A DNA stretch of 64,000 bases from assembly GCF_013122565.1 (NCBI RefSeq), contig NZ_CP053258.1; one strand, given 5' to 3'. The notes under the pieces were generated by a model. That model had not been told where the DNA came from. It saw only the letters and a program-made list of their open reading frames with translations, and searched no databases. Below, piece after piece: positions 37,189 to 42,735 of the stretch (its first letter is position 1; each line of letters starts with the position of its first letter). The DNA is from Escherichia coli (GTDB lineage: Bacteria; Pseudomonadota; Gammaproteobacteria; Enterobacterales; Enterobacteriaceae). The translations under genes were made by a program, and so were the position numbers.

Positions 37189-37593
37189 ATGGATCAGGTC
37201 GTTGTTTTTCAAAAGATGTTTGAGCAAGTGAGAAAAGACCAAAACTTTTCCTGGTTTTATTCAGAATTAAAACATCACCGTATTGCACATTACATTTATT
37301 ATCTGGCTACGGATAACATCAGAATTATTACTCACGATGACACGGTTTTGTTATTAAGAGGAACCAGGAACCTGTTAAAAGTTAGTACGACCAAGAATCC
37401 TGCCAAAATAAAAGAGGCCGCATTGCTTCATATTTGCGGAAAATCTACATTTCGGGAATACTGTTCAACACTGGCAGGCGCGGGCGTTTTCCGGTGGGTT
37501 ACTGATGTTAATCATAACAAACGCAGTTACTACGCCATTGATAATACGCTTTTATATATTGAAGATGTAGAAAATAATAAACCATTAATCTAG
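37189..37593 (+). CDS. ycgX: uncharacterized protein YcgX
   Basis: 134-aa ORF; synteny between bluR and iraM. Confidence 0.8.
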   Translation: MDQVVVFQKMFEQVRKDQNFSWFYSELKHHRIAHYIYYLATDNIRIITHDDTVLLLRGTRNLLKVSTTKNPAKIKEAALLHICGKSTFREYCSTLAGAGVFRWVTDVNHNKRSYYAIDNTLLYIEDVENNKPLI

Positions 37594-37796
37594 CTAAAGT
37601 TGGAAGCTTAAGAAATGCTTCATAATTCAGTAAGGCATTAGCATAATGGAACTAAAAGTGCAGAGACTATTCCTATAGATCTTATACTGCCTTTTTATTG
37701 CCATCCATAGATGTTCAGTAGACCAATACTATAAAATTGATATTGAAATGTGCTCCCTTGCTTATTGATACATTATTTTATACGGTTAGTTTTCCT

Positions 37797-37832
37797 CTAA
37801 AAACAACGGGCGTGCTATACGCCTGTTTCAAG
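37797..37832. repeat. terminator-like hairpin, imperfect copy of the icd terminator at 39091..39119
   Basis: AAAAACAACGGGCGTGCTATACGCCTGTTTCAA vs AAAAAAACGGGCGTGTTATACGCCCGTTTCAA ~1.3 kb away. Confidence 0.6.
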
Positions 37833-37969
37833 GCTTAACTCATATGAATTTTTCTTTATTTTTCATCACGTTATAATTTTTAACCAGCAACGAATTATCC
37901 TTCACTATAAAGTTCAATAGTTGAGACCTTATCCTCATGTCATGCGTATATTCATCATAATGATCCTTA

Positions 37970-37998
37970 GACAAAAAAAGCCAACCATGATGGTTGGC
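37970..37998 (-). terminator. orphan rho-independent terminator on minus strand
   Basis: GCCAACCA-TGA-TGGTTGGC hairpin, followed on the minus strand by TTTTTTT; no annotated minus-strand gene ends here. Confidence 0.5.
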
Positions 37999-38220
37999 AA
38001 AGTGGCACAAAGTAGCATAAAGGCTATGCTTTAATTACAGGAGGTTCAGACATTTGAATGTATATCGTTTTATCTAAACAGAACTAAAACGAAGTGAATG
38101 ATTTCATTTTTTCACTAAATCTCATTTTGTTTAATCTCTGTTGAGATTCCTTGTTTTAAATTTTGCTTTATATAAACAATAGCTTTATTTTTTAAATTGA
38201 TTTTTAGGTAATATAGAAAA

Positions 38221-38475
38221 ATGCAAAATCAAGGAATGAATATCCAAAGCAAACTATACGCATATTTAAATAAATATGACACTCGTCTTACAGAAGAAAA
38301 AATTGCGATTGAGAAAGCCATTAGAGAGTTACATTTTAGCAGCGAGCATGTTGATAACAAGAAAATAATACTGAAGTTACTATCATTTTTATCATATACA
38401 GATGATGTTGTCGAAAAAGACATTATCAGAAATGCATTGGAAGTGGTTCTTCTTTTTACTTCCGATGATATTTAA
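38221..38475 (+). CDS. AriR/YmgB-family small protein (paralogue of ariR)
   Basis: 84-aa ORF; C-terminal NKKIILKLLSFLSYTDDVVEKDIIRNALEVVLLFTSDD aligns with Ari[39 protein letters not shown]; weak RBS. Confidence 0.65.
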   Translation: MQNQGMNIQSKLYAYLNKYDTRLTEEKIAIEKAIRELHFSSEHVDNKKIILKLLSFLSYTDDVVEKDIIRNALEVVLLFTSDDI

Positions 38476-38717
38476 TTGAATTCATTAATTTTATTATCAT
38501 AATTATTTTCCGGACACTACATTTTTTACTTATGTTTAATAATAACCACTGCGAATGAGGGACGCACAGGTATATTTTTCTCACACCTGTGATGTAAAAA
38601 CACGATAAAATCCAAATAAAGAATAAAATTTGCGACCCCACCAGATGGATTGCATCACACATTATTATTCAAAATATTTATCAACATCATTAATAGCCGA
38701 AGGATAAGACATAACAA

Positions 38718-39041
38718 ATGAAGTGGATAGTAATTGACACGGTAATTCAACCTACATGCGGTATATCTTTTTCAGCCATATGGGGTGATATGAAAATGAT
38801 CGTCTGGTATCAATCTACTATATTTCTCCCTCCTGGCAGTATATTTAAACCGGTTAAATCTGGTATTATCTTTAAGGATAAAGAATACCCTATTACTATT
38901 TATAACATCGCACCATTCAACAAGGATTTATGGAGTTTACTCAAAAGCAGTCAAGAGTGTCCTCCAGGAGAAAGCAAAATAACAAATAAATGTTTTCATA
39001 ATAGTTGCATTATAAAAATATGCCCATATGGGCTCAAGTAA
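38718..39041 (+). CDS. iraM: anti-adaptor protein IraM (RpoS stabiliser)
   Basis: 107-aa [15 protein letters not shown]...ICPYGLK; matches my recollection of K-12 IraM; position adjacent to icd 3' end. Confidence 0.8.
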
Positions 39042-39090
39042 AGGGTTTCATATAAATATGCTCGATATGCTATTAATAATACCTACATAA

Positions 39091-39119
39091 ATAAAAAAAC
39101 GGGCGTGTTATACGCCCGT
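39091..39119 (-). terminator. rho-independent terminator of icd
   Basis: ACGGGCG-TGTTATA-CGCCCGT hairpin followed on minus strand by TTTTTTTAT, 25 bp downstream of icd stop. Confidence 0.8.
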
Positions 39120-39143
39120 TTCAATATTTAAAACATGGAGAGA

Positions 39144-40394
39144 TTACATGTTTTCGATGATCGCGTCACCAAACTCTGAACATTTGAGCAGCTTAGCGCC
39201 TTCCATCAGACGTTCGAAGTCATAAGTTACGGTCTTCGCGTTGATTGCGCCTTCCATACCTTTAACAATCAGGTCTGCGGCTTCAGTCCAGCCCATATGG
39301 CGTAACATCATCTCTGCGGAGAGAATAATAGAGCCTGGGTTAACTTTGTCCTGACCGGCATATTTCGGCGCAGTACCGTGGGTGGCTTCAAACAGGGCGC
39401 ATTCGTCACCGATGTTTGCGCCAGGGGCGATACCAATACCACCAACCTGCGCTGCCAGGGCGTCAGAAATGTAGTCACCGTTCAGGTTCATACAGGCGAT
39501 AACGTCGTATTCAGCCGGACGTAGCAGGATCTGTTGCAGGAACGCATCAGCGATCACGTCTTTAATGACGATCTCTTTGCCGGTGTTCGGGTTTTTAACT
39601 TTCAGCCACGGGCCGCCGTCGATCAGTTCACCGCCAAACTCTTCACGCGCCAGCTGGTAGCCCCAGTCTTTAAACGCGCCTTCGGTGAACTTCATGATGT
39701 TACCTTTGTGCACCAGGGTCACAGAGTCACGATCGTTAGCAATTGCGTATTCGATCGCTGCACGAACCAGACGTTTGGTGCCTTCTTCCGAACACGGCTT
39801 AATACCGATACCGCAATGTTCCGGGAAACGAATTTTCTTCACGCCCATCTCTTCACGCAGGAATTTAATCACTTTCTCGGCGTCGGCAGAGTCAGCTTTC
39901 CATTCGATACCCGCATAAATGTCTTCCGAGTTTTCACGGAAGATAACCATATCGGTCAGTTCAGGGTGTTTAACCGGGCTTGGAGTGCCCTGATAGTAAC
40001 GTACCGGACGCAGGCAGATGTAGAGATCCAGTTCCTGACGCAGGGCAACGTTCAGAGAGCGAATACCGCCACCTACTGGAGTGGTCAGCGGGCCTTTAAT
40101 GGCAACGCGATATTCACGAATCAGATCAAGGGTTTCAGCAGGCAGCCAGACATCCTGACCATAAACCTGTGTGGATTTTTCACCGGTGTAAATTTCCATC
40201 CAGGAGATTTTACGCTCGCCTTTATAGGCTTTCTCGACTGCAGCGTCGACCACTTTCAGCATGGCTGGGGTTACATCTACACCGATTCCATCACCTTCAA
40301 TGTAAGGGATAATCGGATTTTCAGGAACGTTGAGTTTGCCGTTTTGCAGGGTGATCTTCTTGCCTTGTGCCGGAACAACTACTTTACTTTCCAT
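39144..40394 (-). CDS. icd: NADP-dependent isocitrate dehydrogenase
   Basis: 416-aa ORF matching K-12 Icd; intact 3' end with no prophage junction. Confidence 0.97.
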
Positions 40395-40854
40395 TCACCT
40401 CTCCTTCGAGCGCTACTGGTTTGCTCGTCTGCCACCACGTTGCATATGCGTTTGCGTCCTGCGATACGGATGCTTTAGAGCAATTTTTTGTTAATGATTT
40501 GTAATTGGCTTGTCAATACTACCCTATTGTTTGCCGTCATGAAAGATGCGCGTTATTAGGCTATAATGCGGCAATTCATAATCTCTGAAAATACCATGCA
40601 AAAAACTTCTTTTAGACCAAAGACAGTATTTTCCCGACCTTCAAATAAAGTATTAAATATCAATTATTTACACCAGACTTTAAGCAATAAAAAAACCACC
40701 AGAGATAACTAACAGGGTGCTATTTGGTCAAAATTTGACATTACTCGATTCAGCGACTAACTCACTTTGAGCACTATTGGGAAAATTATCAAAAGTCATG
40801 GTTGAAGCGACAAGCAACGAGTAAATTATGGCATCCACCCTTTTTGAGGTTCAC

Positions 40855-40947
40855 ATGAAACGCTTTGCACTGATAGCTGTGACACTCATTGCCTTTACTG
40901 GTTCTAGTTCTGCATCTGCTGCAACCGAAGAAATCAACTTCAAGTAA
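40855..40947 (+). CDS. 30-aa mini-ORF with signal-peptide-like sequence
   Basis: ATG 40855 with GAGG SD at 5-nt spacing; MKRFALIAVTLIAFTGSSSASA-ATEEINFK; same frame as downstream 149-aa ORF, separated by two stops. Confidence 0.35.
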   Translation: MKRFALIAVTLIAFTGSSSASAATEEINFK

Positions 40948-40980
40948 CAGAAACACTATATAACAATGGAGTGTTGAAAA

Positions 40981-41430
40981 ATGGATACTACCGAAGAACG
41001 CAATGGAACATATTTCTACAGAGGACACCCGAACCTGTCCAAAATAGAACTACTCAACGTCATATTCCTTGAAGAATTCTGTAAGGAATTGGGGATTGAT
41101 TCGGTATCAGGTGCAGCAATCTTATCTGGTCAACCTTGGCTGGGTACAAGAGCGAAGCCGGAAGGGGCAACCCTGGGAACAAGTGTTGTCTCAAAGTATG
41201 CGCGTATACTGATGAGAGATGCACGCATGCCTTTTGGTATTTCTGTTCATACAACAGTGGGTGTAAGGATGCAGAAATCTAATAAGCTTGCTGCAATTAT
41301 CGCTCGTTGGGTCCCGTGGATTGGTTGGGCTTCACTGTCGATGAGTCTTTACAGGATTTCGACTCGTACCCAGGAAAAATACAATCTGATTGCCAAACCT
41401 CAAGACCGTATTAAGTGGACTTCCTTCTAA
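40981..41430 (+). CDS. hypothetical basic protein (149 aa), first gene of an islet gene pair
   Basis: ORF from track; net positive charge; AGA/AGG codons rare in backbone; stop overlaps start of next ORF (TAATG). Confidence 0.6.
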   Translation: MDTTEERNGTYFYRGHPNLSKIELLNVIFLEEFCKELGIDSVSGAAILSGQPWLGTRAKPEGATLGTSVVSKYARILMRDARMPFGISVHTTVGVRMQKSNKLAAIIARWVPWIGWASLSMSLYRISTRTQEKYNLIAKPQDRIKWTSF

Positions 41431-41765
41431 TGGCGACAACAATCACAGACGAAGTTTTAGCACTGTTCCGTGATGAGATTCCAGGTTATCAGGATGATCA
41501 CGGGAAGGAAATTCCGTTAGAACTGGACTCTGATTTGTTCGACTATCCACGAGATGATTTAGAGGACGCTATACGGAAATACAAAGAGAGGTTTGGGATT
41601 AACCTGGATAATCTGGAATGGTCTTTGTACCTTCCGTGGGAGTCTGCACCATTGCTTCAACGATGGTTCAAGCTCAAGCGGGAAGAGGTAGAAACAACAC
41701 GTTTACCGTTAACTGTACGGATGTTTGCAGAATCAGCAGAAGCGGGAAAATGGCTGTATCAGTAG
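41430..41765 (+). CDS. hypothetical acidic protein (111 aa), second gene of an islet gene pair
   Basis: ATG 41430 overlaps upstream stop (TAATG coupling); strongly acidic (MATTITDEVLALFRDEIPGYQDDHGKEIPLELDSDLFDYPRDDLEDA); track ORF begins at in-frame ATG 41415. Confidence 0.6.
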   Translation: MATTITDEVLALFRDEIPGYQDDHGKEIPLELDSDLFDYPRDDLEDAIRKYKERFGINLDNLEWSLYLPWESAPLLQRWFKLKREEVETTRLPLTVRMFAESAEAGKWLYQ

Positions 41766-41773
41766 AATAAAAA

Positions 41774-41800
41774 AGAAGGCTGCGATGCCCTTCTTATTAC
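41774..41800 (+). terminator. weak terminator-like hairpin after the islet gene pair
   Basis: AGAAGG-CTGCGATGC-CCTTCT hairpin 9 bp after stop, followed by TATTACT (poor T-run). Confidence 0.35.
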
Positions 41801-42096
41801 TGCTGATGATGGTAGTGGTAAAGCATCATCCTGAACTTAAACAGTGAAGTGCTGTCACCCATCAGTAATACAGAAACACTATTTTCATACCAGTATTTAT
41901 TCAATTCATCAATGTAAAATGTGTTCATTGGGCCATATTTATCACCATGCAGCCACACAACCGCTGCTCACTAACCCAGGTATTGATGAAACCGCGCTGA
42001 AGAGCCTGAACCCTGAACCTCTAACGAGTACCTTCAAAGTCCAATGCAATCCGACACTGTGCTAACCTCTGCGTATAGCTCTATTTGGAATTTACC

Positions 42097-42735
42097 ATGA
42101 AATACTTTAGCGATTCTAAATCTTCTTTTAGAAAAAAACAGGTTAGTCGACTAAACTCGCAACACACCACTAAGCGTAAACCTGAAAACCAGCCCACGCG
42201 TGTGATCCTGTTCAATAAACCCTACGATGTTCTTCCGCAGTTTACCGATGAAGCCGGGCGCAAAACATTAAAAGAATTCATCCCGGTTCAGGGCGTTTAT
42301 GCAGCAGGTCGTCTTGACCGCGATAGCGAAGGGTTACTGGTGCTGACCAATAACGGCGCGTTGCAGGCGCGTTTAACCCAGCCGGGCAAACGCACCGGAA
42401 AAATCTATTATGTGCAGGTGGAAGGTATTCCCACACAAGACGCACTTGAAGCCTTGCGCAATGGCGTAACCTTAAATGATGGCCCTACCCTGCCCGCAGG
42501 CGCGGAGCTGGTTGAAGAACCCGCGTGGTTATGGCCGCGGAATCCACCAATTCGTGAACGCAAAAGTATTCCCACCAGCTGGCTGAAGATCACCTTATAT
42601 GAAGGACGTAATCGCCAGGTGCGCCGCATGACCGCCCATGTTGGTTTCCCCACGCTGCGACTAATTCGCTATGCGATGGGTGATTACTCTTTGGATAATC
42701 TTGCCAATGGCGAATGGCGAGAAGTGACAGATTAA
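42097..42735 (+). CDS. rluE: 23S rRNA pseudouridine synthase RluE
   Basis: Body matches K-12 RluE ([22 protein letters not shown]...GEWREVTD); start uncertain (ATG 42097 or TTG 42085) and N-terminus may differ from K-12. Confidence 0.85.

Follow-up and report, generated by a model that had tools for sequence, protein, structure and literature searches.

Here, we describe an inserted stretch of DNA (an islet) within 64,000 nucleotides of Escherichia coli sequence (contig NZ_CP053258.1; this whole stretch is hereafter the window). The islet carries two small overlapping genes between icd and rluE. The first encodes a protein of the STM2901 family (Pfam DUF8209) and the second a protein of the DUF1493 family, and positions 40981–41765 comprise exactly these two open reading frames (ORFs) and no more. 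We regard the pair as a horizontally acquired polymorphic toxin–immunity module, with its toxin a probable cargo of the Hcp protein of type VI secretion systems (T6SS), an interpretation that we consider probable.

The window is 97.6–99.6% identical to RefSeq E. coli sequences, the closest strains being the pigeon isolates PT62 and LP5-1, and RefSeq annotation was carried over to it from three matching records. The gene order in this region is iraM, icd, the STM2901-family gene, the DUF1493 gene, rluE, nudJ, mnmA, hflD and purB. The coordinates of the features discussed below are collected in Table 1.

The gene pair and its proposed delivery partners

The STM2901-family product has 149 amino acids, a mass of 16.8 kDa and an isoelectric point (pI) of 9.9. 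It matches NCBIfam NF045926 over its full length (156.8 bits, cut-off 110, E = 3.3e-46), and Pfam PF26636 is recorded on all of its homologues; the local copy of Pfam that we used did not contain the PF26636 model. The form found in the window is free-standing, with its own conserved N-terminus (MDTTEE.NGTYFY), and has a stretch at residues 103–121 that is hydrophobic, but less so than would be expected for a transmembrane helix. Its structure model was poor, and a fold search matched nothing.

The DUF1493 product is smaller and acidic (111 amino acids, 13.2 kDa, pI 4.5). Its match to PF07377 (103.1 bits, cut-off 21, E = 1.7e-29) extends over profile positions 3–107 of 108, and it carries no signal sequence. 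The protein has a fold like that of an acyl carrier protein (ACP), with an N-terminal extension of two short strands. The alignment column that holds the phosphopantetheine serine of ACPs is not conserved in the family, where it is occupied by S, Y, T, F, D or W; the invariant motif of DUF1493 is instead the C-terminal PLTVxMFxESAKAGKWLYD. The combination of a basic first protein and an acidic partner is shared by the pair of the window and four pairs of homologues.

A pattern scan that covered a single genome for each species gave 49 loci with relatives of the pair. Their hosts include Enterobacter, Citrobacter, Klebsiella, Raoultella, Erwinia, Pantoea, Rouxiella, Hafnia, Mangrovibacter, Buttiauxella and others, and a single genome often holds several of the loci; the position between icd and rluE was seen in Escherichia only. 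In 42 of the 49 loci, the next gene after that of the STM2901 family, in the same orientation, is a DUF1493 gene, nearly always with an overlap of stop and start codons. Additional DUF1493 copies that have no toxin gene beside them are found at Mangrovibacter and Raoultella loci.

The upstream neighbor of the pair is frequently hcp. In 26 of the 49 loci, at most 40 nt separate the pair from the end of a full-length hcp upstream. Another 6 have hcp within 2 kb but differently arranged, and 5 have a remnant, such as the internally deleted hcp of Raoultella; the other 12 have no hcp nearby. The arrangement is well illustrated by Citrobacter, where an islet flanked by housekeeping genes contains the gene for a 160-amino-acid T6SS Hcp, checked against Pfam, and, starting 12 nt past its end, the pair. 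Loss of hcp recurs outside Escherichia. Citrobacter amalonaticus (locus L015) has the pair without hcp at the yajR–cyoE site used by hcp-bearing Citrobacter, and Raoultella terrigena (L024) retains only the two ends of hcp. Erwinia typographi (L040) also lacks hcp, and a gene that by eye is PAAR-like lies about 2 kb downstream on the opposite strand.

A second kind of partner emerged from a DUF8209 profile search, which returned 406 matches among 1.84 billion representative proteins. In many of these, the domain forms the extreme C-terminus of a longer protein of 240–790 amino acids. Pfam finds RHS repeats in one such protein (P0229), and the longer sequences that we inspected have YD-repeat cores ending in a DPxG motif. 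Three Rhs/YD-type proteins were checked for their neighbors, and for two of them (P0165 and P0153) a DUF1493 gene lies directly downstream. The contig neighbors of these two carry Por_Secre_tail or DUF6443 domains, which are features of a Bacteroidota type. Such swapping of delivery scaffolds, with the same small downstream partner retained, is characteristic of polymorphic toxins and their immunity proteins. Additionally, the sequence identities of the two proteins co-vary across homologues (Mantel r = 0.90, a value reached by 0 of 2,000 permutations). Two widespread families of unknown function can now be read as a toxin–immunity module that is linked to hcp in enterobacteria and to Rhs proteins elsewhere.

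We propose that the STM2901-family gene encodes a small basic toxin, which would most likely travel within the lumen of an Hcp tube because the gene sits directly behind an orphan hcp in most Enterobacterales. The lumen accepts cargo of about 20 kDa or less, and the 16.8-kDa product falls within this limit. The DUF1493 protein, translationally coupled to the toxin, acidic and cytoplasmic, would bind and neutralize it.

Several results weigh against this proposal. The 64-kb window lacks hcp, vgrG, PAAR and any other T6SS gene, and neither tblastn nor nhmmer detected a remnant of hcp upstream of the pair. The tblastn search with Citrobacter Hcp (E ≤ 10) produced chance matches elsewhere in the window only, and an nhmmer profile built from 20 hcp genes matched neither the islet nor the other hcp-less upstream regions tested. 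The genes downstream of P0229 have no recorded DUF1493 match, and linkage alone could explain the co-variation of the two proteins. PADLOC gave no match, and PHROGs returned only families of unknown function. In the literature searched, we found no paper linking DUF1493, STM2901 or DUF8209 to the T6SS. Finally, the contrast in selection between the two genes within Escherichia, described below, comprises only 17 and 15 substitutions.

The same literature contained no description of the function of DUF1493, STM2901 or DUF8209. STM2901 and STM2902 appear there only as hypothetical genes adjoining Salmonella pathogenicity island 1, and the supplements of a 2026 survey of Salmonella T6SS effectors hold nothing on these families. 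A GGAGTG ribosome-binding stretch before the toxin start resembles, by eye, that of hcp-linked loci; we do not count it as evidence.

The proposed module can be compared with several known systems. Tse2–Tsi2 of Pseudomonas aeruginosa is an Hcp-dependent pair in which Tsi2 is acidic and cytoplasmic; the DUF1493 protein is likewise acidic and would likewise be cytoplasmic. The polymorphic-toxin concept, of C-terminal toxin domains with immunity genes downstream, was reportedly set out by Zhang, Aravind and colleagues in 2012. In keeping with Rhs/YD toxins of this type, DUF8209 follows a YD-repeat core and a DPxG motif with the DUF1493 gene next; unlike them, the DUF8209 protein of the window stands free of any carrier.

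Closer in organization are Ssp6–Sip6 of Serratia marcescens and its relatives, Hcp-dependent cargo pairs that adjoin orphan hcp genes of Enterobacteriaceae (PMC6889166). The shared features, compared by description, are a small effector gene directly behind hcp followed by a small immunity gene, occurrence mostly in Enterobacterales, several copies per genome, variable sites and ‘silent’ or orphan copies away from any T6SS. The resemblance has its limits: Sip6 is reported to localize to the outer membrane and Ssp6 to be toxic from the periplasm (PMC6889166), whereas DUF1493 has no signal sequence, and the copy in the window has no hcp. Evolved Hcp toxins offer a further comparison, such as the 366-amino-acid Eh1 with its 84-amino-acid partner Ehi1 (bioRxiv 10.1101/2021.10.07.463556). 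Like the families studied here, Hcp-ET1 to Hcp-ET5 and Eh1–Ehi1 occupy orphan hcp loci of Enterobacteriaceae and have a toxin with a small overlapping immunity gene downstream. Unlike those covalent fusions to Hcp, hcp and the toxin are here separate genes about 12 nt apart, and the protein sizes differ.

Both ORFs of the window are full length and keep every family-invariant residue. The selection acting on them was analyzed in 12 Escherichia sequences. In the toxin gene, 12 changes are non-synonymous and 5 are synonymous, and its ratio of non-synonymous to synonymous polymorphism (pN/pS), 0.74, is not distinct from neutral (p = 0.37). These counts depart strongly from those of the flanking genes (26 non-synonymous to 143 synonymous, p = 3e-6; pN/pS 0.01–0.09). 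For DUF1493, 8 non-synonymous and 7 synonymous changes give a pN/pS of 0.32 (p = 0.03). Between genera, the corresponding ratio of divergence (dN/dS) is 0.05–0.18 where synonymous sites are unsaturated. Of the 8 E. coli carriers examined in RefSeq, 7 are annotated with one identical DUF1493 protein (WP_000246191.1). In a single E. coli record (L064), an IS3 element breaks the 3′ end of the toxin gene and DUF1493 is intact; truncated and frameshifted toxin variants are present in the protein database, and strain IAI39 matches only half of the islet query, at two places.

A near-neutral toxin beside a constrained immunity gene suggests a protective role, and the present value of the islet would therefore likely lie in protection from toxin-firing neighbors and not in attack. 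That the immunity half of this orphan pair is still kept by selection is the least secure step of the argument, the counts being small.

It is unlikely that both genes are functionless leftovers of a former hcp–toxin–immunity islet that is now being lost. The missing hcp, the near-neutral pN/pS of the toxin gene, its disrupted and truncated alleles, the half-match in IAI39 and the absence of the islet from about 93% of genomes would all suit a decaying relic, but such decay sits poorly with full-length ORFs that keep all invariant residues, with purifying selection on DUF1493 and with the identity of its product in nearly all the carriers inspected.

The ACP-like fold of the putative immunity protein is unusual. 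As a refinement of the toxin–immunity module, DUF1493 might be an ACP mimic, the DUF8209 toxin might hit AcpP or interfere with lipid synthesis at a step that depends on ACP, and the hcp-less copies might serve as a defensive decoy. The fold, the non-conserved serine and the selection contrast all allow this idea and none of them demonstrates it, and we give it a small chance. DUF1493 differs from ACPs in that serine, in its N-terminal extension and in its own C-terminal motif. If the idea were true, the hcp-less copies of E. coli would persist purely as a decoy against toxin-firing Citrobacter, Enterobacter or Klebsiella in their surroundings.

Two small overlapping genes with basic and acidic products also recall a type II toxin–antitoxin module, which would act in addiction or stress, solely inside the producing cell and unconnected to secretion. 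The window has no secretion gene, 12 of the 49 related loci have no hcp nearby and many copies are on plasmids, all of which such a module would accommodate. We nevertheless think it quite unlikely, given that 26 of the 49 loci have hcp immediately before the pair and 11 others have it or its remnant close by, and given the fusion of the toxin domain to Rhs/YD-repeat carriers, which are delivery scaffolds. Furthermore, the DUF1493 fold is ACP-like and not one of the DNA-binding folds of antitoxins (helix-turn-helix, ribbon-helix-helix, AbrB or similar).

Insertion into rluE and distribution of the islet

The site without the islet is seen in the enterotoxigenic E. coli (ETEC) strain H10407, where rluE starts directly after the icd–rluE spacer. 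The native RluE N-terminus is common to the RluE of Salmonella and Kluyvera and is therefore the ancestral form. In the occupied site, 17 ancestral codons are left at 40566–40616, followed by about 1.5 kb of new DNA, and the reading frame of this remnant continues into the islet as a 48-amino-acid ORF that ends at 40712. The gene restarts at 42097 with a different N-terminus; RefSeq gives the same 212-amino-acid RluE in carriers, and among database matches the replaced N-terminus was retrieved from one E. coli partial sequence only. The islet is a case of an insertion that rebuilt the start of a housekeeping gene.

The left junction of the islet coincides with one copy of an 11-bp direct repeat, CTTCTTTTAGA, whose other copy lies inside the surrogate 5′ end of rluE. 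There are two copies only in the 64 kb, against 0.02 expected, and the repeat family to which they belong (D2) extends over 20 nt at 85% identity. The last 42 nt of the islet (42133–42174) are homologous to native rluE with 14 differing positions, and identity then resumes. Neither simple duplication of the target nor site-specific crossover within the repeat fits this number of mismatches, as both would leave the 42 nt unaltered. On sequence grounds, the incoming DNA appears to have brought its own diverged piece of the rluE 5′ end; its right end would have joined by homologous recombination and its left end by an illegitimate or microhomology join. Homology of the surrogate start was also considered to the left of the 11-bp repeat, but alignment there is at chance level, and homology is therefore claimed only from the repeat rightwards. 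No integrase or transposase ORF is present within the islet (40617–42174).

This anatomy can be set beside that of prophage e14, which integrates at the 3′ end of icd and replaces that end. In both cases, the inserted DNA substitutes for the part of the gene that it displaces, so that the gene stays intact and a remnant is left. Unlike e14, the islet replaces the 5′ end of its target, carries no mobility gene and ends in 42 nt with 14 mismatches.

Within the islet, an exact 13-bp repeat (D3), ACAGAAACACTAT, brackets the gene pair with a spacing of 923 nt. These copies could mark a separate insertion or exchange at the level of the cassette. Joining the sequence across them gives no longer ORF by hand translation.

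A promoter-like TATAAT of the original rluE (40562–40567) is kept and now faces the islet (40539–40616). The pair may be transcribed from this old rluE promoter, in which case rluE would need either read-through past the terminator-like hairpin at 41776–41791 or a promoter within 41883–42096. The T-tail of the hairpin, as read from the sequence, is weak on the plus strand.

The islet is carried by 374 of 5,426 complete E. coli genomes, and relatives of the pair are scattered across many Enterobacterales, at other sites and on plasmids. Together with the interruption of the rluE 5′ end, these figures bear out the horizontal origin that a preliminary description of the window had proposed from codon usage, and they are stronger evidence of foreign origin than composition is.

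When the window was aligned with two further carriers, the distant E. coli FDAARGOS_1281 and Escherichia sp. E1V33, the junction was base-identical in all three, and the insertion therefore arose once. Seven DNA alleles of each gene are present among the 12 Escherichia sequences. Relative to the window, divergence of the carriers is 0.7–1.3% in the two genes and 0.8–2.8% in flanking core genes, and it reaches 6.9% in the non-coding DNA on the left side of the islet. For E1V33, divergence from the window is 2.4–3.0% in the islet, compared with 9.3% in rluE and 6.3% in nudJ. The low divergence of the islet relative to its flanks in this comparison, together with an invariant 222-bp left flank, points to spread by recombination between lineages. 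Synonymous diversity is several-fold lower in the pair than in the flanking core genes, so that the pair is either younger than core diversity or has spread across that diversity by recombination. We propose that a single event in Escherichia put an hcp-less copy of the pair into the 5′ end of rluE, supplying a replacement start, and that a minority of lineages would since have received the islet by descent or through homologous recombination.

Carriage of the islet by phages or E. coli plasmids was considered and rejected. The lone E. coli ‘phage’ match is a partial record that holds an e14-like integrase end and host flank from icd to hflD. In this record (ON470584.1, filed as phage in GenBank), an e14-like integrase and excisionase adjoin icd, and the sequence runs through the islet to hflD. 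The ‘plasmid’ match, the 175-kb record L064 (CP088590.1), holds the chromosomal genes from bluF to purB and looks like chromosomal DNA or a misassembly. In the window, no e14 or other prophage is present at icd, and iraM directly follows it (junction 39042–39143).

Codon usage, composition and age

The preliminary description had read the AT-rich composition of the pair, and its repeated use of the arginine codons AGA and AGG (AGR) and the isoleucine codon ATA, as marks of recent acquisition. Codons were counted in the 60 intact genes of the window, and G+C content at third codon positions (GC3) was ranked among 39 genes. The weights for the codon adaptation index (CAI) were those of the Sharp and Li E. 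coli table. The pair was compared with a flanking core set (icd, rluE, nudJ, mnmA, hflD and purB) and a wider set of 38 core genes of the window.

For the two genes taken together, the enrichment is real. AGA/AGG make up 6 of 19 arginine codons; the corresponding counts are 1 of 99 for the six flanking genes (Fisher p = 5e-5) and 18 of 664 for the 38 core genes (p = 2e-5). ATA accounts for 4 of 17 isoleucine codons, compared with 2 of 120 in the flanking set (p = 0.002). The codons are also avoided in icd (AGA/AGG 0/17, ATA 0/37; GC3 0.535, CAI 0.565) and rluE (1/20 and 0/8; GC3 0.493, CAI 0.280), as had been claimed. The examples given, agagga, agagcg and aggatg, are in-frame codons, all of them within the first ORF.

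Gene by gene, the claim holds for the STM2901-family gene, from which most of the rare-codon signal comes (GC3 0.412, CAI 0.237, AGA/AGG in 5 of 11 arginine codons, ATA in 3 of 12 isoleucine codons). The DUF1493 gene alone (GC3 0.427, CAI 0.232) has one AGG among 8 arginine codons and one ATA among 5 isoleucine codons and does not stand out for either (p = 0.14 for AGR, p = 0.12 for ATA), but it does so when eight rare codons are pooled (p = 7e-4); CGA and CGG supply 5 of its 8 arginine codons. The two overall indices also part company. With z-scores of −2.5 and −2.2 against a core mean of 0.559 (standard deviation 0.059), the pair has the two lowest GC3 values of the 39 genes, whereas its CAI has a z-score of only −1.4 and lies inside the range of weakly expressed core genes (umuC 0.229, phoQ 0.250). 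The G+C content of the islet is 0.37–0.45, compared with about 0.50 in the flanks.

The same composition accompanies the family elsewhere. Homologues of the pair are AT-richer than their surroundings in 34 of 35 other hosts, by a mean of 9.9 GC points (−9.9), and use AGR for 236 of 587 arginine codons (40%) and ATA for 161 of 586 isoleucine codons (27%). An AT-rich rare-codon composition is thus a stable trait of the gene family across hosts. The window also contains a useful internal control in the ycg/ymg cluster (GC3 0.39, AGR in 32 of 111 arginine codons), since the stretch that holds it (19000–40400) is covered over at least 80% of its length in 3,824 of the 5,426 genomes. As both the homologues in other hosts and this cluster share the composition of the pair, composition cannot date the acquisition, and the locus is a case example against the use of AT-richness and rare codons as a clock for gene acquisition.

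It is accordingly quite improbable, in our judgment, that the locus is best described as a recently arrived pair of unknown role whose codon usage records its recency. The atypical GC3 and rare codons, the patchy distribution and a synonymous diversity below that of the flanks would agree with such a history, but the composition is as much a property of the homologues and of the ycg/ymg cluster, the junction is shared by three carriers that include another species-level lineage of Escherichia, and the seven alleles among 12 sequences and non-coding divergence of 6–7% do not fit an acquisition that is recent at the strain level. The islet is younger than core diversity, yet it is no recent strain-level event.

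Finally, it is highly improbable that DUF1493 is a true acyl or peptidyl carrier protein with the STM2901-family protein as its partner enzyme, since the serine column is not conserved and the neighboring genes are hcp or Rhs genes instead of synthase, transferase or ligase genes.

The LRR gene and other features of the window

Table 1. Positions of the islet, its components and other features in the window. Names of putative functions are predictions.
Feature	Position	Strand	Remarks
Leucine-rich repeat (LRR) gene, 478-aa product	9268..10704	+	in ~2-kb insert between cvrA and dadX
icd	39144..40394	-	left backbone gene; composition reference
Ancestral rluE 5′ remnant (first 17 codons)	40566..40616	+	100% identical to ETEC H10407 empty site up to 40616
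11-bp direct repeat CTTCTTTTAGA, left copy	40606..40616		left islet junction
Inserted islet (left non-coding, gene pair, right non-coding, surrogate rluE 5′ end)	40617..42174
Doubtful 33-aa ORF	40846..40947 (or from 40828)	+	signal-peptide-like start (MKRFALIAVTLIAFTGSSSASA...)
13-bp direct repeat ACAGAAACACTAT, left copy	40947..40959
STM2901-family (Pfam DUF8209) putative toxin gene	40981..41430	+	NCBIfam match, hcp linkage, Rhs/YD C-terminal tip
DUF1493 putative immunity gene	41430..41765	+	start overlaps toxin stop (TAATG)
G+C-rich terminator-like hairpin	41776..41791		just past DUF1493 stop; scan scores minus strand
13-bp direct repeat ACAGAAACACTAT, right copy	41870..41882
rluE with replaced N-terminus	42097..42735	+	rest is ordinary core sequence
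11-bp direct repeat CTTCTTTTAGA, right copy	42122..42132		inside surrogate rluE 5′ end

The 33-amino-acid ORF upstream of the pair was considered as a third gene of the islet and rejected: it is frameshifted in Escherichia sp. E1V33 and has a 6-bp deletion in FDAARGOS_1281. It has neither a RefSeq annotation nor a family match.

The LRR gene, elsewhere in the window, had been described in the same terms as the pair, as a second AT-rich islet of foreign origin. Its rare codons agree with this (AGA/AGG in 5 of 21 arginine codons, p = 4e-4; ATA in 4 of 27 isoleucine codons, p = 0.03). Its GC3 of 0.587 (z = +0.48; CAI 0.268) is that of an ordinary core gene, and the AT-rich argument therefore fails at synonymous sites, where GC3 indistinguishable from that of core genes had been named in advance as a refutation. 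The low total G+C content of the gene (0.479) comes from second codon positions (G+C 0.30), that is, from amino-acid composition. The insert is found in 834 of the 5,426 E. coli genomes, and K-12-like strains lack it; such patchy carriage fits an accessory gene.

The LRR protein has repeats of the YopM/IpaH/SspH type (E = 2.6e-28 to YopM). Pfam gives only LRR_4 and LRR_8 and no NEL ligase domain, and structure matches to SspH, SlrP and IpaH cover the LRR parts of those proteins only. The insert also holds a hypothetical gene for a 53-amino-acid product (8720–8881).

The ycg/ymg regulatory cluster (27000–39100, ymgJ to iraM, including ariR, ymgA, ycgZ, bluF and bluR) is AT-richer than the islet, with local G+C content down to 0.27. 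An extra gene of the YmgB/AriR family lies at 38221–38475. Two genes of the window look like pseudogenes: ycgY (3335–3775), which has a premature stop at codon 104, and an autotransporter gene (28312–30629), which is 4 nt shorter than an intact relative and frameshifted.

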